This document shows, piece after piece, positions 2,837 through 37,928 of a stretch of 64,000 nt of DNA. The notes below the pieces were generated by a model that was given only the letters and a program-made list of their open reading frames with translations, did no database searches and was not told the DNA's origin. This DNA comes from Candidatus Caenarcanales bacterium. Its GTDB lineage: Bacteria; Cyanobacteriota; Vampirovibrionia; 2-02-FULL-35-15. Position numbers and translations under genes: made by a program. Every line of letters starts with the position of its first letter. Within the stretch, counting starts at the first letter, position 1. The stretch spans positions 140,012-204,011 of the forward strand of contig JAGVKQ010000020.1 of the NCBI GenBank assembly GCA_020050435.1, in the 5' to 3' direction.

Positions 2837-2907
2837 GTAAATCGTAACATTTCACCTCGTAATACACCAATTTCATTTAATTAATAGCTAATCTAAATTT
2901 GTGCTTT

Positions 2908-3930: not shown

Positions 3931-3985
3931 GTTCTGCTTTATTGTAATACTGTTGCAATAAGAAAAAATCTGGTAAAATAATTGA

Positions 3986-4999
3986 ATGCTTTTTCAATTC
4001 ATATTCTCTTTAATAATTGCTTTTTTTATTTCAACTAATTCTTCTTTAGCTCACCATGGCGGAGAAGGTGGACTAGGTGGCGGTGCTGGAATAGCTGGAC
4101 CCATAGTAACTATACCTGCTTACCCATTACCAAAAGGAAGTAAGTTTATAAGCTTAATTACAAATTACAATAACGAAAACATTTTCTCAGATTCCAAATT
4201 AAGCCGCCTTGGCAAAAGAGGAGAAGAAGTAGATATAGTAGAAAATACACTTACCCCTTCATTAACAGTAGGATATGGTTTTACTGAAAAGTCTTCATTA
4301 AGTGCAAGTATTCCTTATCTCTTTAAATTTGGAATAAGAAGAGTAGAAGAGTCACCCGTAGTAACAAATAAAGGAAATTCAATCGGTGTAGGAGATATAA
4401 ATTTATTTGGCTTATATGAGTTGGTTCATAGTGAAAAGCATGATTTACATACAGCCCTTTTATATGGTCTAAAAATACCTACTGGAGTTAGAAGAACAAA
4501 AGACCATTCAGGAAATATATATAAAGCAGAGCATCAACCCAGTACAGGTTCTTGGGACCCTTCTTTAGGACTTTCCGTAAGTAAGCATGCAGGGATTTTA
4601 CATTTAGATGCAAATGGCATGTATAGATTTTCGACTAAAGGTATTCAAGATACTACCTTAGGAGATATAGTTTCATACAACTTAGCTACATCCTATTTAG
4701 TTGGAACTAAAAATACCAGATTTGATAAACTCTTTCCTAAAAAAATATTTGGTCATGAAAGTAGTTGGCATTTAATCGGAGAAATAAATGGCTCCTGGGT
4801 AGAAAAACCTAAAAGTCCAGAAGGCAGAGAAGAAAATGAAGGTGGAACGCTTGTCTATCTTTCCCCTGGAATGAGATTGATACTGGATAAGAAATGGGTT
4901 ACAAACCTATCAGTAGGTCTTCCTACTATTCATAATTTAAATGGTAGAAGGCAACCGCCAAATGTCAGAGTTATTTTAGGCGTTACGAGAGTATTTTAG
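3986..4999 (+). CDS. putative outer-membrane beta-barrel protein, paralog 2
   Basis: Signal peptide then AHHGGEGGLGGGAGIAGPIVTIPAYPLPKG. Collinear similarity to the 2908-3930 protein along the whole length. Ends ...VTRVF. Confidence 0.5.
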   Translation: MLFQFIFSLIIAFFISTNSSLAHHGGEGGLGGGAGIAGPIVTIPAYPLPKGSKFISLITNYNNENIFSDSKLSRLGKRGEEVDIVENTLTPSLTVGYGFTEKSSLSASIPYLFKFGIRRVEESPVVTNKGNSIGVGDINLFGLYELVHSEKHDLHTALLYGLKIPTGVRRTKDHSGNIYKAEHQPSTGSWDPSLGLSVSKHAGILHLDANGMYRFSTKGIQDTTLGDIVSYNLATSYLVGTKNTRFDKLFPKKIFGHESSWHLIGEINGSWVEKPKSPEGREENEGGTLVYLSPGMRLILDKKWVTNLSVGLPTIHNLNGRRQPPNVRVILGVTRVF

Positions 5000-12673: not shown

Positions 12674-12856
12674 TTTTTTTTATTTCAATTTTTTATTTTG
12701 ATTTTATTTTTTTAAAAGCCATAGCTAATTGTATTAAAGGTTAAGAAAAATCAAGGGGCTTAAAATAAATTCTTTATGAATACATATCTGATAAGAAATA
12801 AGTCGCCTTTGGTGAATCTGGCTCCAGAGGAGCGGGGGATAAGGGGTAAGCCGTAG

Positions 12857-12876
12857 AGACTTGATAAATCAAGTCT
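12857..12876. repeat. perfect 20-bp palindrome agacttgataaatcaagtct inside a GC-enriched island of the ccoN upstream region
   Basis: Direct reading. The gacttg/caagtc arms recur at 54458-54475. Confidence 0.6.
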
Positions 12877-13270
12877 AATATATGAAAACAATTCTTATAT
12901 TGTGTGGACAAAAAGATAAATTCAATATTGATATTTTTTCAAGATGCAAATCATTTTCAATAAAGATCGGTCAAATAATGAAAGTAAATATGTAATTATT
13001 TAAAAATAATTTTTTTAGGTTTTTAAATTGAATTTAAGCAGCAAGTAAATGTGGTTAGTTTTATAAATGGGCCGGGAACACCGGTGGAACTTTTTTATTA
13101 TCAGAAATAAATTCCGTTTCAAAAAAAATATTTTTTCTTATTATCAAAAATGCTTTCTGATAACAACCACAGAAAAGCATTTCACGAGGAACAGATCATT
13201 TCATATTGCCGACAATGTAGAGACGCCCTGATGGTGCATCTCCATTAAATATGAATGAAATGAGGTTCCT

Positions 13271-15217: not shown

Positions 15218-15434
15218 ATATTTCTCCTTAAATACTTAAATAAGATAGGTAACATTCTATGTTAAAAGTTAGAAATAAATTTATATTGTTATTTTTAATT
15301 TATCTTAGAGTAGAGATTTTTTCGAAGATTAGATTTTTTTAATAATACTTGTTAGAGAAATTTTAATTAAGAATGCAAAGATTGCTGAAAAACTCTTTAA
15401 TATTTCACAAGATTGAAAAATTTAATAATTGACT

Positions 15435-15463
15435 ATTGAAATACTAAAACCAATATGTTAATA
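15435..15463 (+). promoter_or_regulatory. sigma70-like promoter TTGAAA-17-TAATAT (module A)
   Basis: Hexamers at 15435-15440 and 15458-15463 with a 17-bp spacer. Nearly identical to the module at 16880-16908. Confidence 0.45.
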
Positions 15464-15482
15464 TATTACACAACAGATATAA

Positions 15483-15561
15483 AACTTAAGTAAAAAGCAC
15501 TCAGCATCTGGGTTTAAGCATTAGCTGAAAGCTAAATGCTGTTTGCTTAAAGGAGGTCTAT
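15483..15561 (+). promoter_or_regulatory. conserved 5' leader with hairpin (agcattagct-gaaa-agctaaatgct) ending in SD aaaggaggtc
   Basis: Paralogous to 16692-16773: AAAAGCACTCA.CA..GGGTTT.AG.ATT ... TTGCT.AAAGGAGGTC. Confidence 0.45.
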
Positions 15562-15867: not shown

Positions 15868-16587
15868 ATGAATAGAATTCCAAATGGGGGCATTACGCCT
15901 CCCACTCCACCAATTCCTCCCAGAGGTCCAAATGGTCCCTATGAAACTCCAGGTGATGATGAAAATCTAATCAAAGCAGAATTTGAATTTGATCCTTATC
16001 TTGTAGAACACTACCCTGAAGTAGCAGAGAGGATAGCTGAAACCATTAATCTTATAATTCCACTTAGACCTGATTTATTAGATGTGCTTTCTGATTCTAA
16101 TGTTAAATATTTCATTGGTGTAAGAGAAGATTTAAAATCTATGGTTGAACAATTCGCCGGAATAAAAGAACCGTTAAATAAATATGAATATGAAAAACAA
16201 TTTGACTTCGTAAAAAATGCTGCTGGTTATACTGGCTGCTGTTTAGGAGAAAAAGATAATCCAAGAAGTACAAAGGCTTCATTTATAACTTTTTTCACTC
16301 CTAATATAATCGATAGTAGATATGAGTTAATAGCAGAAATAATTAGACAGCTTACTTTTTCAAAAGAAGCACATAAACTTTTCAAAGACCATGTAGAAAG
16401 AGGCATTCCAATGAATGTAAGCTATCCAAGATTATTAGCAAAAGGAGATGAAGCCGTAATCAGTGCATTAGAGGAAATAAAAGGAATGCTTTATCCACAA
16501 ATTGATAATGAACTGAATACTCTACTAGCAGCAGTAAAATCTTCTCATGTAGAAAATATAGCTAGAATTGCAGAAAGAGAAAATTAA
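15868..16587 (+). CDS. hypothetical protein with Pro-rich N-terminus (239 aa)
   Basis: SD aaggagatcaccATG. PPTPPIPPRGPNGP N-terminus. No recognised domain. Confidence 0.5.
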   Translation: MNRIPNGGITPPTPPIPPRGPNGPYETPGDDENLIKAEFEFDPYLVEHYPEVAERIAETINLIIPLRPDLLDVLSDSNVKYFIGVREDLKSMVEQFAGIKEPLNKYEYEKQFDFVKNAAGYTGCCLGEKDNPRSTKASFITFFTPNIIDSRYELIAEIIRQLTFSKEAHKLFKDHVERGIPMNVSYPRLLAKGDEAVISALEEIKGMLYPQIDNELNTLLAAVKSSHVENIARIAEREN

Positions 16588-16691
16588 TCATTCTTAAACT
16601 TGTAAACTAATGCAAAATTAAAGAAGATAATAATCTCGACTTCTTTTGAGAGTGTGTTAGTATGTTACTTATCAAAGGTAGTTTTTAGTTT

Positions 16692-16773
16692 AAAAAGCAC
16701 TCAACAAGCGGGTTTCAGGATTGGCTTATTTTCAATTCCTGATAACTGATTGCTGCTTGCTCAAAGGAGGTCA
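16692..16773 (+). promoter_or_regulatory. second copy of the conserved leader (module C) ending in SD aaaggaggtc, followed by tandem ATG ATG and a 27-codon ORF
   Basis: Aligned by eye to 15483-15561. Confidence 0.4.
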
Positions 16774-16879
16774 ATGATGATTTTCCCTATAGGAGCGCGT
16801 GTTTCCCCATATATAAAAATATTCCCCAACCTATGCAAGAAATGGGACTCAAAAGGTTAAAAATTTAATATTTACTCTA

Positions 16880-16908
16880 TTGAACTAGGAAAAGAAATAT
16901 GTTAATAT
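16880..16908 (+). promoter_or_regulatory. sigma70-like promoter TTGAAC-17-TAATAT (module B)
   Basis: Paralogous to the 15435-15463 promoter including the flanking aaaaatttaata...tattgaa...aatatgttaatata. Confidence 0.45.
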
Positions 16909-16950
16909 AGGATCAACAAGACAGATTTTTACCTATAAAAGGAGGTATTT

Positions 16951-17285: not shown

Positions 17286-19289
17286 TTACTCTTCTTGTTC
17301 TCTTAATTTTTCAAGTACATTTACATCTTCTAAAGTTGTAGTATCACCTGTAGTTTGCCTTCCACTAGCAATATCTCTAAGTAACCTTCTCATAATTTTC
17401 CCTGAACGGGTCTTAGGAAGAGCATCCGTGAAATGAATTTTTTCTGGTCTAGCAATAGAACCGATTTCTTTAGTGACATGCTCTTTCAATTCTTTAACCA
17501 AATCCTCATCAGTTTTATCATTTTTTATATTGGATTTTTTTGTTACGAATGCACAAATAGCCTCACCTTTAATATCATCTGGATATCCCACTACTGCTGC
17601 CTCAGCTACAGAAGGATGACTAACTAAAGATGATTCTACTTCCATGGTACTTAGTCTGTGTCCTGAAACCTTGATTACATCATCGATTCGCCCAAGCACC
17701 CAGTAGTAACCATCTTTATCACGACGAGCACCATCACCAGCAAAGTAAGAGCCTTTTATATGACTCCAATAAGTTTTTCTATATCTCTCATCATCACCCC
17801 ATATAGTTCTAAGCATAGAAGGCCAAGGTTTTTTAATAACCAGATTTCCACCTTCATTTGGACCAGTAGATTTTCCTTCGCTGTCCACTATATCTACAAA
17901 TATTCCAGGAAGTGGTAACGTCGCTGAACCTGGCTTAGAAGAAGTAATTCCAGGCAGTGGTGAAATCATAATTCCACCTGTTTCAGTCTGCCACCACGTA
18001 TCAACTATCGGACATTTTTTATTTCCAATATTCTCGTGATACCACATCCATGCTTCAGGATTTATAGGTTCTCCTACACTTCCCAATAATCTAAGTGAAG
18101 AAAGATCATATTTTTTCACCCAATCTAAACCAGCCTTGGCAAAGGCTCTAATGGCAGTCGGTGCTGTATAAAAAACAGACACCTTGTTTTCATTTATTAT
18201 TTTCCAAAATCTTCCCCAGTCTGGGAAATTCGGCGCACCTTCATAAAGTAGAACAGTAGCACCATTACTAAGGGGTCCATAAACTACATATGTATGCCCT
18301 GTAACCCAGCCTATATCAGCACTACACCAGTAAATATCAGAATCTTTAATATCAAAAATCCATTTAGTAGTTAATGTAGCCCAAAGTAAATACCCAGCAG
18401 TACTATGTAAAATGCCTTTGGGTTTTCCAGTAGTACCTGAAGTATAGAGAGTAAAAAGTGGATGCTCTGAATCCAACTCAGTTGCTTTATGGATAGCAGA
18501 TGATTTTGACATAAGTTCATGCCAAGAGAAGGTTAATGGTTGATGGTTGATGGTTGATGGTTGGGGATTATTATTTATTCTGCCTACCACAATAACATTT
18601 TCAACAGTAGTACATTTCTTCAAAGCCTCATCTACATTTATTTTCAGAGGAACTATCTGACCGCGACGATAACCACCATCAGCTGTTATAACTAACTTAG
18701 CTTTAGAATCATTTATTCTATCAGCCAAAGCTTCCTGACTAAATCCACCAAAAACCACACTATGAACAGCACCAATTCTAGTACAAGCAAGCATTGCCAC
18801 TACAGCTTCAGGGACAAGTGGCATATAAATAATTATTCTGTCTTTTTCTTTAATTCCAAGATTTATTAAAACATTGGAGAACTTACAAACTTCTTCATGT
18901 AGTTCTTTATAAGTAAGTTCTTTCTTCTCTTCATTTTCCCCTATCCAAATTAATGCTTTTTTATTTCCTCTTTTTTCTAAATGTCTGTCCAAACAATTAA
19001 AAGAAACATTGGTTTTTCCATTCACAAACCACTTAGAAAAAGGCTCATTCCAATCCAAGACCTTATCCCATTTTTTAAACCAATGCAGATTCTCATTAGC
19101 TAAATCACTCCAAAAACCCTCAAAATCAGTATTTGCTTTTTTTACTAATTTTTCATACTCAGACTTAGAAAGATTTGCCTGCTTAGCAAAAGCATCTGAA
19201 GGTGGGAATAAGCGATCTTCATGCAAACTGGATTCTATATTTTTTTCTGACATATTTTCATTATATCGTTTTAAATTTATATGAGACAA
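17286..19289 (-). CDS. acs: acetyl-CoA synthetase (AMP-forming)
   Basis: 667 aa. [14 protein letters not shown]-binding motif. Collinear with E. coli Acs including the C-terminal [11 protein letters not shown]. Confidence 0.9.
18531..18565. repeat. tandem heptamer (ggttRat)x5 inside the acs coding sequence
   Basis: ggttaat ggttgat ggttgat ggttgat ggttggg read directly; encodes [12 protein letters not shown] on the minus strand. Confidence 0.8.
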
Positions 19290-19296
19290 TTTATTT

Positions 19297-19950
19297 ATGC
19301 TTTCATTAAAAAATATGAATGATTTCCAAAACGTATCTAAAGACTACGGGATAAACATTTCAGAATCACAATTAAACCAATTCCAAAAATATCATGATTT
19401 TTTACTTGAATGGAATAAAATGATAAATCTTATTTCAAGACAAAATGCAACCACTGAAACAATACTGGAACGCCATTTTCTTGATTCAATTATATTTCTT
19501 CCAGAAATTGAGGGTTTGATTTATCAAACCCCAACGGTTTTAGATATAGGATCAGGAGCTGGCTTTCCTGCTATTCCCTTAGCCATTATGAAACCTGAGT
19601 GGGATTTCACACTCAGCGATGCCACAATGAAAAAAGCAAACTTTTTAAATGAACTTATAAAACATTTAGATTTAAAAAATGCAAAGGTTGAAAACAAGCG
19701 TGCTGAAGAAATAAAAAATAAATATAACTTCACCACTGCTCGTGCTGTAGCTAAAATTGATGAATTAATAAAATATTCTTCACCTATACTAAAAAAAGGT
19801 GGGTCTCTACTAGCATTTAAAGGACCAGCTTATGAAGAAGAATTAAACAGTGCAAAAGATTTAATTGAAAGCAAAAAGTTAAAAGTTAAAATGTTTTCAA
19901 AAGAAGTAAATGAATTTAGTAAGAAGTTAGTGGTAATTACCCAACCCTAG
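19297..19950 (+). CDS. rsmG: 16S rRNA (guanine527-N7)-methyltransferase RsmG/GidB
   Basis: [20 protein letters not shown]-binding motif. Size and architecture of GidB. Confidence 0.8.
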
Positions 19951-20371
19951 TGTTTTTAAGCCTTCTAGCTAATTCTACTGTTTCTAGCATAACTAATAAT
20001 TTAGCTAATTCCATTTCTGCTTGTTGGACTTCTACTTGTTCTGTACTCTTATGAGCTAATTTTGCTGCTGCTAATTCTTTTTCTCTTTCAGCTACTACTG
20101 AATCTATATTTTCAGCTAAAGCCGCATGATCTGAAATAATAGTGACGCCTTCTTTAGAAACTTCCATCATTCCGCCAAGTACTGCTGCAACTTTTCTTTC
20201 ACCACCAGAAAAATACTGAAATGGTGCTAATGAAAGTGGTGTAATAAGTGGAATATGATCTGGAAGAACACCAATCTCACCATCAATACTACGAGCAATT
20301 ATTTGCTCTACTTCTTCATCAAGTATTGTGGCACTAGGGGTTAAAACTTTTAATTTGAATGTTTTTGGCAT
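19937..20371 (-). CDS. atpC: F0F1 ATP synthase epsilon subunit (orphan, no atpD upstream)
   Basis: LKVLTPSATILDEEVEQIIARSIDGEIGVLPDHIPLITPL beta-sandwich plus C-terminal helical hairpin. Collinear with E. coli AtpC. Confidence 0.75.
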   Translation of the reverse strand: MPKTFKLKVLTPSATILDEEVEQIIARSIDGEIGVLPDHIPLITPLSLAPFQYFSGGERKVAAVLGGMMEVSKEGVTIISDHAALAENIDSVVAEREKELAAAKLAHKSTEQVEVQQAEMELAKLLVMLETVELARRLKNTRVG

Positions 20372-20407
20372 AGGATTATTTTATATTATATGGCATTGTA
20401 AAAGACG

Positions 20408-20523
20408 TGGCAATCTAACGTAAAATGTCATTCTGAAGGAGTGAAACGACTGAAGAATCTAATAACGTTTTTAGATTCTTCGCCTTCGGCTCAGAATGAC
20501 ACAATACCTTAGTTAGATTGCCA
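20408..20523. repeat. nested palindromic repeat element (~116 bp), copy 1
   Basis: Outer IR tggcaatctaac/gttagattgcca, middle IR gtcattctgaagg/ccttcggctcagaatgac, inner IR tgaagaatcta/tagattcttc. Near-identical second copy at 26835-26951. The right arm supplies the last three codons and stop of the 20513-21664 gene. Confidence 0.8.
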
Positions 20524-21664
20524 TGGTAGAGTCATTAGTAATGCCGTCTCTACAAATAGCTTCTCCGCTTCTTATAGTTAACCAATCTACACAAGTTTTC
20601 CAGACCGTAGATTTAGCTCTTTCACTTCCCATAAGAGAAAGATGTCCAAGAGGAAATTCCATGTATTGAAAGTCATTTGTGGAAATGTATTTCTGAATGG
20701 CTCTTACTGAATCAGCTGGGACAAAAGAATCTCTACTACCAGCTATGGTTAAAAGATTTGCTCTGAAGTTTGAAAGACTTACGACCTGATCAAGTAATTT
20801 CATTTTCCCGTTTATAAGTTCATTTGTAGAAATAGATTCAAACATTTGTTTAAAGGTTGTTTCTGGAAGATTTTGGAAGTTTCCAAAAAAACTATTCAAT
20901 GCCTGACTCTTAACAAGAAAATCTCTATCCCAAGCTCTATTTAATAAGTGCCCTGGTCTTTTAAAATCACCATATAAATTAACTGTCTTAAACATGCAAG
21001 TAAGAAGCTCTTTAGGCATACAACCAAATTTTTCTGAAATGGCAAACCATTCCTTTTTAAAAGGTTTAAAGATTACATTGAAAAACTTTAAATAGCTTAA
21101 ATCTATGGGTCCAGCAATATTAATAACATTTTTAATATCGTTTCTAATATCTATAGAAACACTGGAGTAAATAATGCTAAAAGCTCCACCCAAGCAATAA
21201 CCAAGTAGTGAAACTTGTTCTGAGTTAGAGTGCTTTTTAGTCATATGAACAGCTCTATATAAAAAATTTAAAATATAATCATCTATTTTCAAGTGAGAAT
21301 CATTTCTATCAGGTCTTCCAAAATCCACAAGATAAACATTAAAACCAGCATCTAGAAGCGTTTCAGCCAAACTGTGACTAGGAGTTAAATCTAAAAGATC
21401 AGTAGTAGACATCAAAGGCGGAACTAAAATAACAGGAACACTAAAAATGTTTTCTCTCTTTGGATAGTAATGATAAAGAGTTACATATTTTTCTTGATAT
21501 AAAAGCTTTCTTGCATTATCCCGATTCGGTCTAATATCTTTTTTTATAGCAATTTCTAGGCCATTTAAAGCTCGCAAAAATGTCTTTTCTGTTTGTTCTT
21601 GAATAACAGATTCTAGATTTTTTGGTATTTCCAGGTTAAGAAGTTTTTTAAGATTTAAAAGCAT
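20513..21664 (-). CDS. alpha/beta-hydrolase with lipase box GYCLGG; class III PHA synthase (PhaC)-like
   Basis: 383 aa. LLGYCLGGAFSI (G-x-C-x-G-G). Size as for class III PhaC. No phaE seen. Confidence 0.45.
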   Translation of the reverse strand: MLLNLKKLLNLEIPKNLESVIQEQTEKTFLRALNGLEIAIKKDIRPNRDNARKLLYQEKYVTLYHYYPKRENIFSVPVILVPPLMSTTDLLDLTPSHSLAETLLDAGFNVYLVDFGRPDRNDSHLKIDDYILNFLYRAVHMTKKHSNSEQVSLLGYCLGGAFSIIYSSVSIDIRNDIKNVINIAGPIDLSYLKFFNVIFKPFKKEWFAISEKFGCMPKELLTCMFKTVNLYGDFKRPGHLLNRAWDRDFLVKSQALNSFFGNFQNLPETTFKQMFESISTNELINGKMKLLDQVVSLSNFRANLLTIAGSRDSFVPADSVRAIQKYISTNDFQYMEFPLGHLSLMGSERAKSTVWKTCVDWLTIRSGEAICRDGITNDSTMAI

Positions 21665-21794
21665 TTTCTACTTAAATTTAGCATTTTCAAGTGCATTTTC
21701 CTTATGAAAAGTTAAAACTTGCTAAAAATCAAAGTATAGATGTGATTTTTATATAAAATGAAACTCTTCTTAATGTATATCTTAAAATAAAACT

Positions 21795-22454
21795 ATGACT
21801 GCAGTCACTTGTATAAAACCAAATACTCCTCCACGTCTTGCTGATTTGACTGAAGCTGTTTCTGAACTTGAACTTATTAGAAGAGCAAAAGGTGGTGATG
21901 AAGATGCGATGAAAGCATTAGTTTTAAGATATATTCCCTACATAAGAACATGTGCTAGAAATGCTTCTCCTGAGCTTGACGCTCATGAAATAGAATCTCA
22001 AGCTACAGAAAAGATTCCAACTCTAGTAGCAGAATTTAAAGTTGAGAAAAGTAAAAATCAAGGATTACGTCCACTCTTAGCAAAGACTATCTACTTTATT
22101 AAATTGAACTTATATAGAAAGCTGGATAAAGAGCGAACTCATCTTCCTCAATATGCTTTACTTAGACAACAATCTCAAATTCGAAGACAATCAGATTCTT
22201 CACAAAATGTCTTAGATGATTCAGTTATATTAAAAATAAAGTCTATTCTAAGTTCTAAACAAATACAAGCAATTGAACTCAGTTTAGGACTAGACCTTGG
22301 AACAAATTCTACGAAGATACAGCTAGATGATAATCAAATAGCAACTATTCTAGAAACAAATGCGAGAAATGTACGCAAAATAAAATCAGTTGCGTTGGGG
22401 AAATTGAGAACAGCTTTTTCTAGGAACGAGAAAAGAAGCACTATAGCAGCATAA
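21795..22454 (+). CDS. sigma-70 family (ECF-like) sigma factor, divergent
   Basis: Region-2-like ELIRRAKGGDEDAMKALVLRYIPYIR and region-4 HTH IATILETNARNVRKIKSVALGKLR. Confidence 0.45.
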   Translation: MTAVTCIKPNTPPRLADLTEAVSELELIRRAKGGDEDAMKALVLRYIPYIRTCARNASPELDAHEIESQATEKIPTLVAEFKVEKSKNQGLRPLLAKTIYFIKLNLYRKLDKERTHLPQYALLRQQSQIRRQSDSSQNVLDDSVILKIKSILSSKQIQAIELSLGLDLGTNSTKIQLDDNQIATILETNARNVRKIKSVALGKLRTAFSRNEKRSTIAA

Positions 22455-22572
22455 CTTATGGGATTTTAGACAAGCTAAAATCTCCATTTACTTTAAATAA
22501 CACTGACAGGATCCACCGAATAAATCGAACAAATCCTTTCTTTATAAATTCATAAGGATTAGCAAGTTAGAT

Positions 22573-23943
22573 TTAGTAGATTCTTAAGTATCTATTTTCT
22601 TCCCAGCTAGAGACTTGAATTCTGTATTCATCCCATTCTTCCCATTTTAAGGAGAGGAATTGACCATAGATGTGTTCACCAAGGGCTTCTTTAGCAATGG
22701 CACTGTTTTCCATTTCTCTAAGTGCTTCTTCTAATGTGCCAGGTAAACTATCTACTTTTAACTCTTTCTTTTCTTCGGGAGTAAGGTGATAAATATTTCT
22801 ATTTACTGGTGCCGGTGGATCAATCTTATTTTTCATACCATCAAGACCAGCAATCAACATACAAGCAATAACTAAATAAGGATTTGCTGCTGGATCAGGA
22901 GATCTTAACTCCACACGAGTAGCTGCACCTCTCTTATCAGGAACTCTGCAAAGTGCTGATCTATTTCCTGGTGACCATGCAATATACACAGGAGCTTCAT
23001 ATCCTGGGACCAATCTCTTATAGCTATTTACTAGTGGATTTGATACTGCACAAATACCGCGAATATGTTTTAAAAGTCCGCCAATATAATATTTCATATC
23101 TTTGCTCAATTTATCTGGTGTACTTGCATCAAAGAATGTATTCTTTCCATCTTTAAATAAGGATTGATTACAGTGCATGCCAGAACCGTTCTGACCAAAA
23201 ATAGGCTTTGGCATAAAAGTAGCATGCATGCCGTGTTTTGCAGCAACAGCTTTAGTAACCCATCTAAATGTAGCAATGTTATCTGCTGCACTCAATGCAT
23301 CTTCATACTTGAAATCAATTTCATGCTGACCAATAGCAACTTCATGGTGAGATGCTTCAATTTCAAAGCCCATGTTTTCAAGAGTATAAATAATTTCTCT
23401 TCTAACTTGTTGACCAATATCAAGAGGCTCTACATCAAAATATGCAGCGACATCACTAGGATCGATTGTAGGATTTCCATTTTCATCTTTATTAAAAAGG
23501 AAAAACTCACATTCAGGTCCTACGTTCATCATATAGCCAAGTTCTTTTTTAACTTTAGCTAAAACTCTCTTTAAGTTATTTCTAGGACATCCCGGAAATG
23601 GTTGACCTTCTGGATCATAAATATCACAAACCAATCTAGCTACTCTACCTTCAGATGGTCTCCAAGGAAGAACTCTAAAAGTTCTTTTATCTGGATAAAA
23701 ATAAAGATCGGATTTTTCAATTCTTTGGAATCCTTTTACAGAACTTCCATCTAACATAAGCTCATTATTTAAGGCTTTTTCTAATTGACTAATAGGAATA
23801 GCAAGATTTTTTACAATGCCAAAAATATCAATAAACTGCATACGAACAAACTTTATATCGTTTTCTCTAGCGAGTTTTATGATCTCTTCATTTGTAGGGT
23901 TTTCTGAAGTGGTAATATTTCGTGAATCTAGCATAGTACTCAT
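22573..23943 (-). CDS. glnA: glutamine synthetase type I
   Basis: 456 aa. KFVRMQFIDIFG and LDGSSV beta-grasp N-domain. Catalytic-domain blocks collinear with GlnA. Confidence 0.85.
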   Translation of the reverse strand: MSTMLDSRNITTSENPTNEEIIKLARENDIKFVRMQFIDIFGIVKNLAIPISQLEKALNNELMLDGSSVKGFQRIEKSDLYFYPDKRTFRVLPWRPSEGRVARLVCDIYDPEGQPFPGCPRNNLKRVLAKVKKELGYMMNVGPECEFFLFNKDENGNPTIDPSDVAAYFDVEPLDIGQQVRREIIYTLENMGFEIEASHHEVAIGQHEIDFKYEDALSAADNIATFRWVTKAVAAKHGMHATFMPKPIFGQNGSGMHCNQSLFKDGKNTFFDASTPDKLSKDMKYYIGGLLKHIRGICAVSNPLVNSYKRLVPGYEAPVYIAWSPGNRSALCRVPDKRGAATRVELRSPDPAANPYLVIACMLIAGLDGMKNKIDPPAPVNRNIYHLTPEEKKELKVDSLPGTLEEALREMENSAIAKEALGEHIYGQFLSLKWEEWDEYRIQVSSWEENRYLRIY

Positions 23944-24132
23944 TTCTATCTCCTCATTATTCTGGGCCTTATAACTTTAAATAAAGAATTTTAATGCTGC
24001 TATCTTAGAAGCTTATTAAATAAAAGGATTCATCCTTTATGACAATAATAATAAGGGTTTTTGTTAAATAGAGTCAATTTTAACGTATATGAAAAGTACT
24101 AAATACATAATTAACTGACTGATGGCTTATGG

Positions 24133-25095
24133 GTGGCTATAATACTATTCATGTTTAAGATCAGAACACCACAAATTAGTGATTTTTCAAAACTTGAGCC
24201 TTTATTTCAAAATCATCCTTTGTTTTCGTCCCTCAATGCAAACAAATTTATTTGTATAGCTCAAACAATTATTCCTTATAATTTTAGAGTCATGCCAAGT
24301 ATTCATTTGGCAGTAGAAAAAGAAAAGATACTTGGTTTTATAATTTTAAGCTCTGTATCCCCCTCAAATAATGCCTGGCAAATTGATGATGTTTATATAC
24401 AAGAAGAAGTAAGAAAGCATGGAATAGGAGAAGAACTGGTTAGATATGCTATATCAGTCTATGGCGGATATGGAATAGAGCATTTTTTAGTAGAAGTGGA
24501 TTCTCAGAATTTTCCTGCCCTATCTTTATTTCATCAATGTGGTTTTAGAAGATATGCAAAAGTTCACTTTTACCAAAAAGAGATGGGGGCGGAAGCCTTA
24601 CCGGTTTTGGGAAACGAATTCATTATTAGACCTCAATTAAATATTGACTTAAACGATATAGAAAAACTAGAGCTATCTATAATCCCTCCTGACTTAAGAC
24701 CAGCACTAGGCAGATCAAAAAAATATTTCAAATCTAAAAAAGATGCTTTAGTTCTTATTGATAAATCCAGAAAATTATTAATAGGCTGGGCTCAAATAGA
24801 CTGCATTAAAGACAACGATTGCCTGATTGAAATGTTAATAAGTCCCGGATGGACACATTTATATAAACCATTTCTAGATACCATAATCAGTGAAAGATTA
24901 CTCTCAAAAACAAATAGCTTCAAATTAACAATTAAAGCCACAGACTATAATACTGATCTTTCAAATATTCTTACTGAATCAAAATTTTTACCAGTAGAAG
25001 TTAAAGAACTCTTAGTAAGAACAGTTTGGCAAAAAGCCAAAGAGAAATCTAAACAATCAGCTAATGTGGGAGCTCCGTCTATAGCACCGACTTAG
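24133..25095 (+). CDS. GNAT-family N-acetyltransferase (possibly tandem GNAT folds)
   Basis: RKHGIGEELVRYAI acetyl-CoA-binding motif A. Confidence 0.5.
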   Translation: MAIILFMFKIRTPQISDFSKLEPLFQNHPLFSSLNANKFICIAQTIIPYNFRVMPSIHLAVEKEKILGFIILSSVSPSNNAWQIDDVYIQEEVRKHGIGEELVRYAISVYGGYGIEHFLVEVDSQNFPALSLFHQCGFRRYAKVHFYQKEMGAEALPVLGNEFIIRPQLNIDLNDIEKLELSIIPPDLRPALGRSKKYFKSKKDALVLIDKSRKLLIGWAQIDCIKDNDCLIEMLISPGWTHLYKPFLDTIISERLLSKTNSFKLTIKATDYNTDLSNILTESKFLPVEVKELLVRTVWQKAKEKSKQSANVGAPSIAPT

Positions 25096-26636
25096 ACAGT
25101 AGATTTTTCAACTCCTGGACGAGCTTTATATTTTTTCTTTGCAGCTGGGAAAGAATCGGCATCTTTAGCTGTTAAAACTGTATGAGGCCTATTTGTTATT
25201 TCTTTATCTTTTAATCCAGTAATTTTTGATTTTTGTACAGTCTCAGCTCTAGTACCAGGACAATTAATCATTTCAAGTGCCTGAGCATCATATGCGCCCG
25301 CACCCTCACTATTTTTTATTAAAGCTCCATATGAATCAGTGATAGTAGCATCTGGGCTGTTATCTATGGTGTTTTTATCTCCATTTTTAATTTCAGAACC
25401 AGGGCTGTTTATAGATTTAGAACCAATAGATCCACTATGAGTAGAATTTGGACTGTTTTTAAGTTCAGCTCCATTACTGCCACTGATTATAGAATTACCA
25501 CTATTAGAAGCCTTAACATTAATACTCTTTTTAATATTTAGACCTTCACTGTTTTTTACAACTGAATCATGTGCTTTTATAAAAACAGCATTAGGGCTTT
25601 CTGTTACTTCTATTCCAGAAGAAACATTTGCTTTTACACCTGAACTGTTCTTCAGATTGGCTTCACTACTTTTTACTATTGAAGAATTACTACTACCAGA
25701 AGCTTTGACCCTACGACTTTCTATAACCTTTACACCTTCACTCTTGTTAAGATTTGCATAATCTGCACCATCAAGAACTGCATCAGGACAATCTTTCACT
25801 TTTATTCCAGCAGAATCCTTTGCACTTAACCCAGGGCTATTTTTTATTACCACTTTAGAGTTATCATCACAATTTACATTTATTATATTCACTCCTCCGC
25901 TATTAAGAAGCCTTACTCCATCAGATGATTCTTCTGCAAAGAAATTTGGCGAATTATGAGCTTTAAAAAACTCACAACTTAAAACTATTCCAGGACTGTT
26001 GTTAAGATTTACATCATCACTATTCACTATAATAGTTCCTGAACCTAGAAGAAGAGCTTTACGAATAGTCCCACCTTCAGAATATTTCAAACATAGTTCC
26101 TCTAATGTTTTAGGATCTATTTTTCTTGGTTTTCCTGGAGAATTTATAATTCTACAATTATGACTTAAAAAGAATCCTGCATTATCACTATCTATGGCAC
26201 AACCATTGGCAGCAACTGCAAATATTGCATTTTTACTTCTAAAAGCAAGGCTTTTATCTGACACTCCACCAAAATAAGATTTTGGACTTTCTATAGCAAC
26301 TGAGTTATTAGCTTTTGAACTAGAATCTTTACTATCTATAAAAATATTGCCTTTTGATTCTTTTCCAAATGACTCTTCAGCTTTTCTAACGCTCATTCCA
26401 AAAGGTAGTGGCTTTTTATTTTCACCACTTAAAAAAACAGCTTTTCCATTAATAACTCTTACAAAAGTTTCACCTTGTGATTCATAGATAATATTAAATC
26501 TATCAGTCAGTTTAACATCTACTTTATTTCCTGATCTGTCTACGTAAGTCTTACCTGCCTTAGGAATTGTTAGCTCTTTTGTATCTTTTACTGTCTTAAG
26601 TACACTCGATTCTTTAATAACTGAATCTATTCTCAT
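25092..26636 (-). CDS. novel repeat protein with approximately 11-13-residue periodic NS(P/E/S/G)G motifs, probably beta-solenoid
   Basis: More than 15 repeats of the type KNSPG.., KNSEG.., NSSG.., NSGG.. across residues 150-460. No signal peptide. No match to a family I know. Confidence 0.5.
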   Translation of the reverse strand: MRIDSVIKESSVLKTVKDTKELTIPKAGKTYVDRSGNKVDVKLTDRFNIIYESQGETFVRVINGKAVFLSGENKKPLPFGMSVRKAEESFGKESKGNIFIDSKDSSSKANNSVAIESPKSYFGGVSDKSLAFRSKNAIFAVAANGCAIDSDNAGFFLSHNCRIINSPGKPRKIDPKTLEELCLKYSEGGTIRKALLLGSGTIIVNSDDVNLNNSPGIVLSCEFFKAHNSPNFFAEESSDGVRLLNSGGVNIINVNCDDNSKVVIKNSPGLSAKDSAGIKVKDCPDAVLDGADYANLNKSEGVKVIESRRVKASGSSNSSIVKSSEANLKNSSGVKANVSSGIEVTESPNAVFIKAHDSVVKNSEGLNIKKSINVKASNSGNSIISGSNGAELKNSPNSTHSGSIGSKSINSPGSEIKNGDKNTIDNSPDATITDSYGALIKNSEGAGAYDAQALEMINCPGTRAETVQKSKITGLKDKEITNRPHTVLTAKDADSFPAAKKKYKARPGVEKSTV

Positions 26637-26834
26637 TATTTATCCTCTTTCTTAAATATTCTATTTCAAACCTATCATGGTTAAGAAATCAAAATCAAGA
26701 AGATTAGAGAAATTTAATTTTTTATAAATGATTTGCCAAAGATTCTGAAGAAAAAATAAAGAAAAGGCGGAGAGCTGGTTAAGATATAGGATTTTCATGC
26801 ATGGTTGAAGAAAAAGAAGAAGACAAAATAAACG

Positions 26835-26951
26835 AAGCAATCTAGTGATGCAGTATGTCATTCTGAATGAGTGAAACGAATGAAGAATCTACTTACGCTA
26901 GTGGATTCTTCGCTAAGGCTCAGAATGACACCTGGCGGTATTAGATTGCTT
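26835..26951. repeat. nested palindromic repeat element (~117 bp), copy 2
   Basis: cgaagcaatcta...gtcattctgaatgagtgaaacgaatgaagaatcta...gattcttcgctaaggctcagaatgacac...tagattgcttcg. Aligns base for base with 20408-20523. Confidence 0.8.
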
Positions 26952-26956
26952 CGTCA

Positions 26957-26985
26957 GGGCTAAAGCCCTTCCTCGCAATGACGTG
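26957..26985. repeat. hairpin agggctaaagccct plus half-site cctcgcaatgacgtg of the second palindromic family
   Basis: Same cctcgcaatgacgtg arm as at 33886-33902 and (reverse) 37904-37918. Confidence 0.6.
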
Positions 26986-27973
26986 TCCCAACAAGAGAAT
27001 TCGTTCTATAATGTTCTCTATGGAATTTATCTACCCTAACTTTCTATTCCTATATATTCTGGTTCCAGTATACATATTTCTACATTTCCATTTTGAAGGG
27101 AAAAAGAAAAAAGATATTATTCCATTTGGAAACTTAGATGTTTTAGTAGAAGCTATAAATAAAACAAAAAAAGTTGATGCTCTAAAACATCTTCCTCTAA
27201 TTTTAAAAACTCTTATTTTATGCCTTCTTATATTTGGTTTAGCTCGCCCAGTCAGCACAATTTATTTACCTACGAAAGATACAAAGGTTATGTTTTTATT
27301 TGATATATCTATAAGCATGGAAGCTGAGGATATGAAACCTAATCGATTAGAAGGTGCTAAAAATGCTGCCATAAAATTTGTAAAAGAACTTCCTGATGGC
27401 ATTCAAACAGGCATTGCACTTTTTAGCGGAACAGTAAAAGTTTTAGCAGAGCCTAGCATTGATAAATCAAAAGTAGTAAACATATTAAAAAGTTTAAATT
27501 TAAAAAGCTTAGAACCAGGAACAGCTATAGGAGATGCCATAGTAGCTGGCACACAAGCAATAACAATAGCTGATAAAGATAAAGTAACAAATAAAGACAA
27601 TAGAATATTAGTTTTAATAACTGATGGTGAAGCGAATATAGGAGTAGATCCAATGTTTGCAGCAGCACAAGCAAAAACAAATAATATAATCATTCAGTCT
27701 GTAGGAGTAGGAAATCCAGCAGGGGCTATAATCAGAGGTGGGATATTAACAAAGTTAGACGAGTACACTCTACGTGAACTTTCACTTTTAACTGGCGGTC
27801 AATATTTTAATGCACAGGGTATGCGTGACTTTAAAGAAGTATATAAAAGAATTAAATCTGCTATTAACCTAATACCACAAAAAACAGAAATTACTTTTAT
27901 CCCTTTGGGTATAGCTTTTATACTTGTGATTATTTTACAAATTCTACGATGGACAAAATTTAGGTTTGCATAG
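26978..27973 (+). CDS. von Willebrand factor A domain membrane protein (BatA-like)
   Basis: N-terminal TM. LFDISISMEAEDMKPNRLEGAK (MIDAS DxSxS). LVLITDGEAN. C-terminal TM. True start is probably an internal Met (MEF...). Confidence 0.6.
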   Translation: MTCPNKRIRSIMFSMEFIYPNFLFLYILVPVYIFLHFHFEGKKKKDIIPFGNLDVLVEAINKTKKVDALKHLPLILKTLILCLLIFGLARPVSTIYLPTKDTKVMFLFDISISMEAEDMKPNRLEGAKNAAIKFVKELPDGIQTGIALFSGTVKVLAEPSIDKSKVVNILKSLNLKSLEPGTAIGDAIVAGTQAITIADKDKVTNKDNRILVLITDGEANIGVDPMFAAAQAKTNNIIIQSVGVGNPAGAIIRGGILTKLDEYTLRELSLLTGGQYFNAQGMRDFKEVYKRIKSAINLIPQKTEITFIPLGIAFILVIILQILRWTKFRFA

Positions 27974-27976
27974 AAA

Positions 27977-28249
27977 TTATTTAATCACACTAAATCCATT
28001 AAACGGTCCATTTGCTTCTTGCCACGTAATTTTCACTTCTTCTACTTTTGCCTGAGGTGGACCTTTTTTACACCATTCTATAAATCTATCAATTATTTTT
28101 TTCTCACCTTGAGCAAGCGCTTCTACACTTCCATCATCTGAATTTCTAACCCAGCCTTTTAAACCAAGACTAGATGCATATTCTTTACAGGAAACCCTGT
28201 AGCAGACATTTTGAACCTTACCAGAAATAATAATATGTGCTTGATACAT
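27977..28249 (-). CDS. acyP: acylphosphatase
   Basis: IISGKVQNVCYRVSCKEYASSLGLKGWVRNSDDGSVEA = acylphosphatase signatures. Start taken at the internal Met; the track ORF extends to 28330 through a GC-rich hairpin. Confidence 0.7.
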   Translation of the reverse strand: MYQAHIIISGKVQNVCYRVSCKEYASSLGLKGWVRNSDDGSVEALAQGEKKIIDRFIEWCKKGPPQAKVEEVKITWQEANGPFNGFSVIK

Positions 28250-28302
28250 TAGACGTCCCACCGGGGCGTCTCTACGTTGCCCCACCAAAATTTCCCGCCA
28301 AT

Positions 28303-29442
28303 TCATACAGAAATTGATTTCAAATTCCAACTTTCCTCAAACTCATCAATCATACTTTGAATTATTGAGTCCCAATTTCCATTAGTTTCATTAAATATTT
28401 TTCTTTGTCTTTTACTACTAGTGCCACGCTTAAAAATATCATATATTTTATTTATTTCTGCTTCTGTACCAAGCTCTTTAATAGCAGGAGAGATTTCTTC
28501 TAAAATCTTTTCTACACCTTTTTGTACAGATATCGTGTTTCCAAAAGTATCTGTAATTAATTCTGCATCTAAACCATACCTTGCGGCACGCCATTTATTT
28601 TCACGAATTATATAAGATGGTAAATGTCCTATTTCATCCATAATTCTATATCTCTTAGCAAAGTGTGCAACTAAAGCCTGGATTAGAGATGCAATTGCAA
28701 TTACATCATCAAAAATTGGAATAGCATCACAGATACGAACCTCTATAGTTCCATAATCAGGATGAGGTCTTACATCCCACCAGATTTCTCTAATAGATTC
28801 TATCGTCCCTGCTTTTTTTAATACATAAACAAGCTCACTAAATTCTTCCCAATTATGCAACCTAAATGGAAGTCCAGTAGTAGGCAATGTTTCAAGAATT
28901 TTTACACGGTAGGATTCCATTCCAGAATCTCTTTTTACCCAGTAAGGTGAGCTAGTAGAAAGAGCAAGCAAATAAGGCAAATAATTCATTAGCGCTGACT
29001 TAACTGCAATAGCTTCATCACCACTTCTTACTCCTACATGAACATGAAGTCCAAAAATAAGCATTCTATTTACGGGCATTTGGATTTTATTTACCAAGTT
29101 CTGATATCTGGGAATAGGAGAAATCGTTTGCCTGGACCAATTAGAAGTAGGATGCGTACCAGCCATAGTAAGCTTCATACCAAATTTAGCTGCATGCTCA
29201 TGCAAAAGAGAAACATATTTTTTCAAATTTCCTTTTAGATCATGAATGGATTTACATGGGTCACTATTTATTTCTATAACTGATTCAAAAAGCTCATGTT
29301 TGTAATTATTTTGTCCTTCAAGACTTTTTAAAAGTGTAGATGTCCCAGAAATAAGCTCTCTAGTATTTTTATCAATGACTTGAAGCTCAAGCTCTACGCC
29401 AACAGAATGATCTTTTACTCCATTAAACTCAAGAATTTGCAT
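28303..29442 (-). CDS. ybdK: carboxylate-amine ligase, glutamate-cysteine ligase family 2 (YbdK-like)
   Basis: VGVELELQVID N-terminal motif and length typical of GCS2/YbdK. Confidence 0.65.
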   Translation of the reverse strand: MQILEFNGVKDHSVGVELELQVIDKNTRELISGTSTLLKSLEGQNNYKHELFESVIEINSDPCKSIHDLKGNLKKYVSLLHEHAAKFGMKLTMAGTHPTSNWSRQTISPIPRYQNLVNKIQMPVNRMLIFGLHVHVGVRSGDEAIAVKSALMNYLPYLLALSTSSPYWVKRDSGMESYRVKILETLPTTGLPFRLHNWEEFSELVYVLKKAGTIESIREIWWDVRPHPDYGTIEVRICDAIPIFDDVIAIASLIQALVAHFAKRYRIMDEIGHLPSYIIRENKWRAARYGLDAELITDTFGNTISVQKGVEKILEEISPAIKELGTEAEINKIYDIFKRGTSSKRQRKIFNETNGNWDSIIQSMIDEFEESWNLKSISV

Positions 29443-33638: not shown

Positions 33639-34409
33639 TTAATTTTCTCTAACGTATTCATTTGCTATCTCAAAGACTTTTTTAAACATAGCTTTTGTAA
33701 GACGCCCTGTCTGCGTATTTTGCCTACTGGGATGATAACTTGCTATTAAAATGTGTGGCAAGCCTTTTTCATATATGGCTCCGTGAGAGAATTTGAAGTC
33801 TTTTTTTTGTAAGACGTCATTGCGAGGAGAGATCCCTCGCTCTGCTCGGGACAGGCTCCGCAATCTAATAGCGTTAGTAGATTGCCGCGTCGGCTCTTTC
33901 AGAACCTCCTCGCAATGACGTGCTGAGATTGCCCATTTAATGTACCCATCAAAAGCAATTTTTCCAAGAGCCACAACAACTTTTAAATCTTTCAAGAGTT
34001 TCAATTCTTCACCTAAATATGGAAAGCAATTATTCAATTCTTCCGGGGTAGGCTTGTTTTGAGGTGGAGCACACCTGCCAACTGCTGTTATATAACAATC
34101 TTTTAATTTAAATCCATCATTTATATCTATAGAATCAGGCTGATTACATAAACCTACTTCATGTAAAATTGGATACATAAAATTTCCAGAAGAATCACCT
34201 GTAAACATTCTCCCTGTCCTATTTGACCCAAATCTTCCAGGAGCAAGTCCTACAATTAAAATCTTTGCTTTCACATCTCCAAAGCTTGGAACAGGTTTAC
34301 ACCAATAAGACGGGAATTTTTCTCTTATCTCATCTATATACTCAACAAGGCGTGGACACTTTTTACAAGAAGTGATTTGATCATTGAGATCAGCAAGATT
34401 TTTTTTCAT
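33639..34409 (-). CDS. uracil-DNA glycosylase family 4 carrying an in-frame insertion of about 36 aa from a palindromic element
   Basis: CKKCPRL, GLAPG and ASYHPS..QN family-4 blocks. Insert ISARHCEEVLKEPTRQSTNAIRLRSLSRAERGISPRNDV encoded by 33794-33902. Confidence 0.7.
   Translation of the reverse strand: MKKNLADLNDQITSCKKCPRLVEYIDEIREKFPSYWCKPVPSFGDVKAKILIVGLAPGRFGSNRTGRMFTGDSSGNFMYPILHEVGLCNQPDSIDINDGFKLKDCYITAVGRCAPPQNKPTPEELNNCFPYLGEELKLLKDLKVVVALGKIAFDGYIKWAISARHCEEVLKEPTRQSTNAIRLRSLSRAERGISPRNDVLQKKDFKFSHGAIYEKGLPHILIASYHPSRQNTQTGRLTKAMFKKVFEIANEYVREN
33794..33902. mobile_element. GC-rich nested palindromic element (~109 bp) inserted in-frame in the UDG gene
   Basis: Outer IR gacgtcattgcgaggag / ctcctcgcaatgacgtg. 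Inner IR gcaatcta/tagattgc, shared with the 20408 and 26835 elements. Local GC far above flanks. Confidence 0.7.
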
Positions 34410-34438
34410 AAGAAAAGAGCCATGCGGCCGCATGGCTC
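34407..34438 (-). terminator. intrinsic terminator: perfect 22-bp palindrome gagccatgcggccgcatggctc followed by TTTTCTT on the minus strand
   Basis: Lies between the prpC stop (34445) and the UDG start (34409). Confidence 0.6.
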
Positions 34439-37878: not shown

Positions 37879-37903
37879 GAATAATATAATAGCAAAATTA
37901 TTC

Positions 37904-37928
37904 ACGTCATTGCGAGCCGAATGACGTT
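37904..37928. repeat. short palindrome cacgtcattgcgagccgaatgacgt (second palindromic family)
   Basis: acgtcatt/aatgacgt arms identical to the outer arms of the 33794 element. Confidence 0.6.

Follow-up and report, generated by a model that had tools for sequence, protein, structure and literature searches.

A 64,000-nucleotide stretch of a contig of Candidatus Caenarcanales bacterium (JAGVKQ010000020.1, positions 140,012 to 204,011 of the forward strand, hereafter referred to as the window) contains, at positions 20408–20523, three inverted repeats nested inside one another between the end of a gene for a PhaC-like alpha/beta-hydrolase and the atpC gene. The locus raises the question of whether this element is mobile DNA that rewrote the end of the gene, as a preliminary description of the sequence had suggested, and, if so, which kind of mobile DNA it is. 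The comparisons described here indicate that it is probably a non-autonomous palindromic repeat of the repetitive extragenic palindromic (REP)/REPIN type within the CGTC/TGTC-tagged superfamily, which was inserted at the PhaC-like/atpC junction as a nested composite and would spread in trans.

A total of six orthologous loci were compared with the window, three of them with 67–76% protein identity to the PhaC-like protein of the window (L001, L002, and L004) and three with at least 90% (L196–L198). An exact-sequence look-up with the PhaC-like protein of the window matched no contig, and the closest relative was reached through another member of its protein cluster. None of the six carries a module of the element, and the distance from the PhaC-like stop codon to the atpC ATG is 15–29 nt in these loci versus 141 nt in the window. 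The closest relative (L196) is colinear with positions 17545–25101 of the window at 88–91% nucleotide identity over 7 kb, with one local exception in which 157 nt of the window (20384–20540, blastn breakpoints 20383/20384 and 20540/20541) stand in place of 52 nt. Both sequences are identical through ...GAAGCTATTTGTAGAGACGGCAT and then diverge. L196 continues with a perfect GTAG...CTAC hairpin followed by GGT ACG CAA CAA CAA TAA (tail ...CRDGIVETPHCGVSTGTQQQ*), whereas the window continues with ...GACTCTACC ATG GCA ATC TAA and the element, and regains the A/T-rich atpC leader near position 20397. The PhaC-like protein ends in ...STGTQQQ* in L196 and in ...STMAI* in the window. Because the element is absent from six orthologous loci, one of which is 88–91% identical, it represents an insertion that replaced the last codons of the gene, and this copy (copy 1) either arrived after the split from these lineages or vanished without trace from all of the others.

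Relative to its close relatives, the element is thus an insertion that donates the stop codon of the adjacent gene. The open reading frame (ORF) ends in ...S-T-M-A-I-stop, and the TAA, the Ile and Ala codons and two bases of the Met codon lie within the outer right arm. A second copy in the window (copy 2) has TAG in the same register (GCA ATC TAG), and REP termini are known to provide stop codons (Di Nocera et al. 2013, PMC3733652). The rewriting of the C-terminus is therefore borne out by the orthologous loci and is limited to the last few residues of the protein. A family of just two copies with the same sequence in the orthologs, the situation expected for an ancient fixed sequence, was not found, as the orthologs lack the element and further copies exist.

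Inverted-repeat analysis recovered all three concentric repeats. The outer pair (TGGCAATCTAAC/GTTAGATTGCCA, at 20408–20419 and 20512–20523) is 12 nt long and 100% complementary, the middle pair (GTCATTCTGA/TCAGAATGAC) lies inside 22-nt arms that are 82% complementary, and the inner pair (GAAGAATCTAA/TTAGATTCTTC) has 15-nt arms that are 93% complementary. The middle repeat had been described with a 13-nt arm (gtcattctgaagg); the repeat itself is present, but its pairing needs a 3-nt bulge. The predicted fold is a single long nested hairpin over the whole region, in agreement with the long stem-loop originally proposed, with −54.8 kcal/mol (z = −9.95) for RNA of the plus strand, −51.2 kcal/mol (z = −8.95) for RNA of the minus strand, and −29.3 kcal/mol (z = −8.1) for single-stranded DNA (ssDNA); 0 of 200 shuffled sequences folded as well in any of the three cases. 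A chance palindrome or a local duplication without the status of a repeat family has nothing in its favor beyond the AT-rich context, and with z-scores of −8 to −10, an exact 30-mer in 63 metagenome contigs, and the same architecture in at least 119 genome stretches this explanation is counted as refuted. Likenesses to hammerhead, k-turn, and attC structures that were seen by eye were dropped (no stem II, no 3-nt bulge, and, in copy 2, no attC R'/R'' cores).

Inspection of loci that carry related sequences revealed that the repeating unit is a hairpin of ~25–40 nt with the organization GTC-A-N4-GA-(apical mini stem-loop, often GCGAAGC)-GA-N4'-T-C. With its tag and tail included, the module reads YGTC, A-N4, GA, a variable apical mini stem-loop, GA, N4'-T, and a C-T-(C/A) tail. 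Among 560 modules, the base that precedes GTC is T in 74% and C in 20%, GA precedes the 3' stem strand in 86%, the apical segment between the GA dinucleotides measures 5–38 nt (median 17), and the tail is C-T(82%)-C/A(50%/29%), that is, CTC or CTA. At least nine stem types (TTCT, TTGC, TCCT, TTTC, TTCC, TACT, TGTT, CCCT, and CTCT) are followed by their own complement within 45 nt in 57–100% of cases in 1.33 Mb of loci, compared with about 0.7% for non-cognate control words. Inverted partners within 260 nt are present for 64% of the 560 modules, 24% are solo, and 12% belong to same-direction arrays. The dimers comprise 127 head-to-head (HH), 42 tail-to-tail (TT, tags inside), and 91 head-to-tail (HT) cases, the last number being too high because of the scan pattern. 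In many dimers the right partner has another stem type (e.g., GATCCTTC..TCAGGATGAC), and since 67 of the 127 HH dimers are heterotypic, local pairing persists in dimers that lack long-range pairing. This strong stem covariation points to the module as a conserved local hairpin.

In the flagged element, two such modules form an HH dimer (tags outside, as defined in PMC3733652) with TGTC tags at 20426–20429 on the plus strand and 20498–20501 on the minus strand (Table 1). The dimers of copy 2, of a copy within a uracil-DNA glycosylase (UDG) gene, and of a metagenome contig described below (L163) are likewise HH. The two head-to-head TGTC modules of copy 1 (20426–20461 and 20472–20501) account for the middle and the inner inverted repeat.

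The distribution of the module covers at least a dozen phyla and extends to phage contigs. The exact 30-mer of the TGTC subfamily of the window is present in 63 metagenome contigs with GC contents of 0.30 to 0.58, the pattern of middle plus inner repeats occurs without the GCAATCTA arms in eight IMG/VR viral contigs, and a scan of a genome collection with a pattern biased to tandem or nested arrangements returned at least 119 stretches. The genome matches include metagenome-assembled genomes (MAGs) labeled as Chloroflexi/Dehalococcoidia, Nitrospira, delta- and gamma-proteobacteria, Clostridia, Campylobacter/Helicobacter, Ignavibacteria, Bacteroidota, Planctomycetes, Verrucomicrobia, Acidobacteria, Actinomycetes, Marinimicrobia, Patescibacteria, and Gastranaerophilales, and those within the Bacteroidota include the isolates Chryseobacterium echinoideorum and Pedobacter psychrodurus. 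Many loci of a single metagenome (Ga0123356; L143–L146, L159, L173, L180, L186, and L195) carry the same mixed-type TT pair, a GGATC-type module followed directly by the exact 30-mer of the module in the window and then by ...ttatggtacaat, a pattern that points to a high-copy derivative family in another host.

The outer inverted repeat belongs to a second module type. The UDG copy (33815–33921) is an intact, un-nested CGTC-tagged HH dimer of the GC type that reads aCGTCATTGCGAGGAG...ctccGCAATCTA-atagcgttag-TAGATTGC...CTCCTCGCAATGACGt in the word inventory of the window, and its inner hairpin arms are GCAATCTA, identical to the outer arms of the flagged element; the word of the outer left arm is the inner hairpin arm at 33860–33867 and recurs in copy 2 and L163. 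CGTC tags of this type are found at 33816 and 37905, the latter in a mini-palindrome (CGTCATTGCGAGCCGAATGACG) that looks like a collapsed GC-type dimer. Copy 2 (about 26832–26954, 86% identity to copy 1 across a 59-nt core) combines both types. Its TGTC dimer lies inside a GC-type dimer of which the right module has been kept, with the CGTC tag on the minus strand (26980–26983) and with TCGCAATGACG located 23 nt after TAGATTGC, compared with 24 nt at the same position of the intact unit. A complete four-layer composite, GTCATTGCGA..GCAATC..(GTCATTCTGA..GAAGAATC..GATTCTTC..TCAGAATGAC)..GATTGC..TCGCAATGAC, is present in L163, which derives from a related low-GC organism (33.7% GC). As the element is all that L163 and the window have in common, this composite resides at a non-orthologous locus.

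Copy 1 and L163 share the linkers GTAA(A/G)(A/T)GACG..GCAATC and TAAC(G/A)TAAAAT, copy 2 agrees with L163 in its apical loop, TA(C/T)TTACGCTAGTG, and in its right linker, and GTAAAAGACGTGGCAATC in copy 1 corresponds to GTAAGTGACGAAGCAATC in L163 in an alignment of the composites. Because the linkers are homologous among all three, the sequences argue for descent of copy 1, copy 2, and L163 from one composite ancestor, relative to which copy 1 starts at about position 20398 and no longer carries the outermost tags or 5' stem strands. The TGTC dimer sits in the spacer of a degenerate dimer of the sister type (stem ATTGC/GCAAT), the leftover strands of which are the outer arms. The three layers might alternatively not be a propagating unit at all, with TGTC dimers inserted separately into pre-existing spacers of GC-type dimers at each site. 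The TGTC core mostly occurs without the GCAATCTA arms (62 of 63 metagenome loci and 8 of 8 viral loci), TGTC modules follow a left GC-type module with other linkers in unrelated taxa (e.g., L018, Helicobacteraceae, and L045, Gastranaerophilales), and Bertels and Rainey report clusters that arise by insertion into or next to REPINs. The homologous linkers and apical loop of the three composites, and the finding that no relative compared has an empty GC-type dimer at the phaC-like/atpC junction, make independent nesting at every site a somewhat doubtful, minority explanation. Both processes may have acted together, with nesting occurring once and the composite then being copied.

Several ORFs of the window are affected by these repeats. 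The dimer at 33815–33921 adds about 38 residues (...SARHCEEVLKEPTRQSTNAIRLRSLSRAERGISPRNDV...) to the UDG (ORF 33639–34433, minus strand), which aligns to the UDGB of T. thermophilus (2D3Y) as residues 19–164 and 208–255 with five residues of the structure bridging the gap; the insert is an intragenic repeat like those of Rickettsia palindromic elements (RPEs) and is located in a DNA-repair gene. A BatA/VWA ORF (26978–27973, plus strand) takes its first ATG from within the right GC-type module of copy 2 (tcgcaATGacg), and as the BatA domain extends from residue 15 this annotated-style start is probably a repeat artifact. The mini-palindrome is located in the short gap between ORFs 36508–37905 and 37940–38893 and contains the GTG start of ORF 36508–37905.

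The modules were compared with known repeat families. REPs have been divided into GTAG- and CGTC-tagged superfamilies (Di Nocera et al. 2013, BMC Genomics 14:522), the latter being characterized by a tag that is often TGTC and may also be CCTC, stems that start with AT, 3-nt tails, and a predominance of HH dimers, TT dimers being rare, and including dRS3 of Neisseria and RPE-4 and RPE-6 of Rickettsia. CGTC repeats may reside within genes, notably DNA-repair genes, and are without a dedicated transposase (PMC3733652). The modules described here share the unpaired tag at one end, stems that start with A-T and then T-A (ATTCT/AGAAT and ATTGC/GCAAT in the window), HH dimers that have spacers of 20–100 nt and are able to form a single large hairpin, dimers of mixed type, copies located in-frame within genes, including repair genes, and overlap with the ends of ORFs. 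Stem position 1 was fixed by the search pattern; at position 2, seven of the nine partner-confirmed stem types have T, and the other two (CCCT and CTCT) have C. In contrast to the CGTC-tagged superfamily, dimers are nested in dimers here, and the published families span five phyla as opposed to at least twelve for the modules, which also have copies in phage contigs. Neither the ATTCTGA nor the ATTGCGA stem appears in the text of PMC3733652 or its accessible supplements, and because its stem and loop differ from theirs the module falls into none of the four described families. It is at most a new family of the CGTC superfamily and, judged by its sequence features, looks like a structurally distinct fifth one.

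The likeness to REPINs concerns organization rather than sequence. In the REPIN concept (Bertels and Rainey, PMC3116915), inverted doublets are the unit, can adopt two alternative folds, and form clusters by insertion. The predominance of inverted doublets agrees with this, as do the replicative unit, the long hairpin or "clover" fold, and singlets that resemble decayed doublets. Canonical REPINs, however, have GT[AG]G as their tag and a single-copy RAYT at their flank and are confined to particular lineages, in which they are inherited vertically, whereas the modules carry a YGTC tag, have no linked RAYT, and include identical ones that are shared across phyla. RPEs (Ogata et al. 2000) are in-frame palindromic repeats that are translated as part of protein genes, with counterparts here in the ~38 extra residues of the family-5 UDG and in the end of the PhaC-like protein, for which the element provides both tail and stop, but RPE-1 is ~100–150 nt long and found in Rickettsia alone, in contrast to short modules in many phyla. 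A 2025 survey (PMC12306157) found that the similarity of REP motifs across taxa is generally low, and sharing of the module across phyla is therefore unusual, without any claim that it is unreported. Literature searches with the DNA strings of the repeat and with repeat-encoded peptides returned nothing relevant.

The end of the PhaC-like gene carried a REP of another family before the composite arrived. Most of the variable tail of the protein comes from an older hairpin at 20525–20554 and not from the composite. This hairpin carries GTAG...CTAC, which places it in a separate family from the YGTC modules, and is of the "double-foot" type (described in PMC6006769). Most orthologs have a GTAG hairpin at the gene end, with tails that read CRD(A/V)INHVST, and the gene end looks like a hotspot of REP insertion. 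In L196, a second, perfect GTAG hairpin (3959–3989) is nested after the first arm. A candidate fourth layer of inverted repeats around copy 1 (GGCATT at 20392–20397, AATGCC at 20540–20545) was rejected as unreliable, as its right half belongs to the loop of the older hairpin, which has the length seen in the orthologs. The GTAG-type family (GTAGAGACG..CGTCTCTAC) is also present at 13213–13241, 28251–28279, 12853–12860, and 19803–19810. The copy at 28251–28279 is translated as the N-terminal extension (...GQRRDAPVGRLM...) of an acylphosphatase ORF (27977–28330, minus strand), the true start of which is probably downstream of the ORF start, the Pfam domain extending from residue 32.

By analogy with the chemistry of RAYT and IS200-type enzymes, the modules might be spread in trans by an enzyme, RAYT/Y1-HUH-like or another recombinase, that reads the tag and the foot of the hairpin in ssDNA. 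Because the gene end already contained a GTAG "double-foot" REP, L196 nests a second one, and the TGTC dimer lies in a GC-type spacer, such an enzyme would appear to prefer landing in or beside existing REP dimers. RAYTs reportedly mobilize REPINs, a view also attributed to Nunvar (2010) and Ton-Hoang (2012). Pfam scans and the gene map revealed no transposase, RAYT, or GIY-YIG gene in the 64-kb window, which encodes metabolic and housekeeping functions, one DNA methylase, and one UDG. All-against-all clustering of 3,482 ORFs from ~130 module-bearing loci identified a generic AraC-type helix-turn-helix family as the sole recurrent one, and no RAYT was found in these loci. A link between such repeats and small GIY-YIG genes found no support, since no GIY-YIG, nuclease, or transposase cluster recurs in the ~130 loci. 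The cognate transposase looked for on the basis of the preliminary description is thus missing from the window and the loci compared, in agreement with the published description of CGTC REPs as having no transposase of their own.

The same data bear on the other half of the original "MITE- or REP-like" classification, namely a classical miniature inverted-repeat transposable element (MITE), an internally deleted derivative of a DDE-transposase insertion sequence (IS) that is bounded by terminal inverted repeats and flanked by target-site duplications. Known MITEs (e.g., Correia/NEMIS, Nezha, and RUP) are small, structured elements that encode no protein, occur in multiple copies, and can alter gene ends or create promoters and RNA-processing sites, and the size of ~116–126 nt, the terminal inverted repeat, and the multiple copies fit superficially. 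In MITEs, the terminal repeats match a parent IS and are accompanied by target-site duplications, neither of which was seen here: no duplication could be recognized at copy 1, copy 2, the UDG copy, or L163, no transposase recurs near the ~560 modules, and no related IS was found. Furthermore, the apparent terminal repeats are inner strands of modules that are also found singly, in arrays, and in dimers of mixed type. The MITE half of the classification is very unlikely on these grounds, and the REP/REPIN half stands.

The hairpin could instead be a functional RNA of the phaC-like/atpC transcript (a terminator, an attenuator, an RNase-processing or 3'-stabilizing structure, or a small RNA) selected at this locus. 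Its position between co-directional genes right after a stop codon, its very stable RNA fold, the known role of REPs as mRNA stabilizers or translational modulators (PMC3733652), and a promoter-like −35/−10 pair that spans the end of the element are all compatible with such a role. A functional RNA is nevertheless unlikely given the absence of the element from the six orthologous loci, among them the 88–91% identical one, and the lack of any Rfam match over the whole window at gathering thresholds (E-value mode gave sub-threshold chance matches alone). No terminator-like T-run was scored, and the same modules occur in coding regions and phage contigs and in all orientations. Among unpaired modules the downstream gene is co-oriented in 61 and anti-oriented in 41 cases and the upstream gene in 60 and 58 cases, respectively, which is no clear orientation bias, and single stem mismatches (eight G.T and seven A.C) show no wobble excess, albeit in small numbers. 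The absence of orientation bias, wobble bias, and Rfam matches together with the copies in coding regions and phage favors a DNA-level repeat with a hairpin that is recognized in single-stranded form over a dedicated RNA gene.

An acquired effect of the element on expression is possible as a side effect. In the promoter-like site that faces atpC, the −35 hexamer is located in the element arm and the −10 hexamer in native leader DNA, so that the insertion would have created a hybrid promoter (predicted by consensus match only) in which the element arm may supply the −35 box for atpC. The 126-nt hairpin, if transcribed between the two co-directional genes, may act as a 3' stabilizer of mRNA or as an attenuator. 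Such effects would not be the reason for the existence of the element.

Some observations weigh against a REP/REPIN-type repeat of the CGTC superfamily. The stem of the module consists of five Watson–Crick pairs followed by tandem G.A/A.G pairs and an apical stem-loop, whereas the CGTC families 1–4 have stems of 8–9 bp and loops of 4–5 nt, and the 3-nt tail is CTC or CTA as opposed to the consensus CCA of the superfamily. Neither a target-site duplication nor an excision footprint is definable at copy 1, and as the nearest relative has a different REP at this junction, one sequence seems to have replaced another, with no clean insertion. No mobilizing enzyme was identified, and the transposition mechanism rests on the analogy to RAYTs and REPINs. 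The breadth of the distribution is qualified by the bias of the genome scan pattern and by the large share of MAGs among the matches, for which mis-binning is possible. Half-module hairpins are weak by nearest-neighbor energies, so that their reality rests on covariation, and for copy 1 these energies favor the long hairpin over half-module hairpins. Tandem G.A pairs and GNA triloops are poorly modeled by nearest-neighbor parameters, and folding of single modules was discarded as not informative.

The window has a GC content of 33%, and the named homologs of its PhaC-like protein carry the label Candidatus Melainabacteria. The gene order glnA (22573–23943, minus strand), phaC-like, atpC, rsmG (19297–19950, plus strand), and acs (17286–19289, minus strand) is kept in relatives. 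L196 lacks a segment of about 900 nt that separates glnA from the PhaC-like gene in the window (21665–22571) and includes an ORF of 219 aa (21795–22454) with a weak HTH_16 match. The distance between the two genes is 32 nt in L196, and this difference is a second indel at the PhaC-like locus. Elsewhere in the window, two long intergenic regions on either side of ORF 15868–16587 (15405–15526 and 16691–16909) share repeated segments (61 nt with 72% and 36 nt with 81% identity) and have no Rfam match. According to the gene map, adjacent ORFs with similar N-termini form three pairs (2899–3930/3986–4999, 30807–32147/32269–33576, and 41488–42525/42702–43730). Direct DNA repeats at a spacing of 1075 nt support a tandem duplication for the first pair, in which ORF 2899–3930 has a Phenol_MetA_deg-like Pfam match; the other scanned ORFs of the three pairs have none.

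Table 1. Coordinates of the composite element, its parts, related repeats, and adjacent genes in the window
Feature	Position	Strand	Description
Composite element, copy 1	20398–20523		Flagged core 20408–20523; left extension 20398–20407 homologous to the L163 composite
Outer left arm TGGCAATCTAAC	20408–20419	+	3' stem strand GCAAT and CTA tail of a degenerate CGTC-tagged GC-type REP module
Left TGTC-tagged REP module	20426–20461	+	TGTC-ATTCT-GA-aggagtgaaacgact-GA-AGAAT-CTA; exact 30-mer in 63 metagenome contigs
Spacer	20462–20471		Apical loop of the head-to-head dimer
Right TGTC-tagged REP module, inverted	20472–20501	-	TGTC-ATTCT-GA-gccgaaggc-GA-AGAAT-CTA on the minus strand
Outer right arm	20512–20523	-	GTTAGATTGCCA on the plus strand; stop and last two and two-thirds codons of the PhaC-like gene
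TAA stop codon of the PhaC-like gene	20513–20515	-	From the CTA-A tail region of the repeat
Older GTAG "double-foot" REP hairpin	20525–20554	-	TGTAGAGAC...GACTCTACC on the minus strand; encodes ...CRDGITNDST
Promoter-like site facing atpC (predicted)	20385–20413	-	-35 TTGCCA, 17-nt spacer, -10 TATAAT; 11/12 match, consensus match only
PhaC-like alpha/beta-hydrolase gene, 3' end altered	20513–21664	-	383 aa; Pfam Abhydrolase_1 and PhaC_N; C-terminal tails of homologs compared
atpC, ATP synthase epsilon subunit	19937–20371	-	Co-directional, downstream of the PhaC-like gene; Pfam matches
Composite copy 2	26832–26983		TGTC dimer inside GC-type dimer; right module TAGATTGC...TCGCAATGACG kept; left tag and 5' stem strand gone
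Intact un-nested CGTC-tagged GC-type HH dimer	33815–33921		In-frame inside family-5 uracil-DNA glycosylase gene
Mini-palindrome CGTCATTGCGAGCCGAATGACG	37905–37927		Two CGTC tags and stem strands, almost nothing between

For the source genome, the element is ordinary selfish DNA, and the single locus is equally ordinary. It accounts for several oddities of annotation, including the rewritten C-terminus with its donated stop codon, the spurious N-terminal extensions of ORFs, and the 38-residue insert in the UDG, and it marks a hotspot at which different REP types have repeatedly remodeled the end of one gene. The wider distribution invites the more tentative proposal that a single sequence-conserved YGTC hairpin module, with an identical 30-mer that includes the apical part, is common to at least 12 phyla and phage without a linked transposase. 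If true, this would imply horizontal spread (e.g., on phages) followed by amplification by a widely conserved ssDNA-processing enzyme of the host or, alternatively, an unrecognized trans-acting recombinase that lands in the spacers of dimers and tolerates in-frame insertion into repair genes. The module family thereby bears on the question raised by Di Nocera et al. of what mobilizes CGTC repeats without a dedicated transposase, and a family that is both widespread and conserved in sequence would be a good handle for finding the mobilizing enzyme by phylogenetic profiling.

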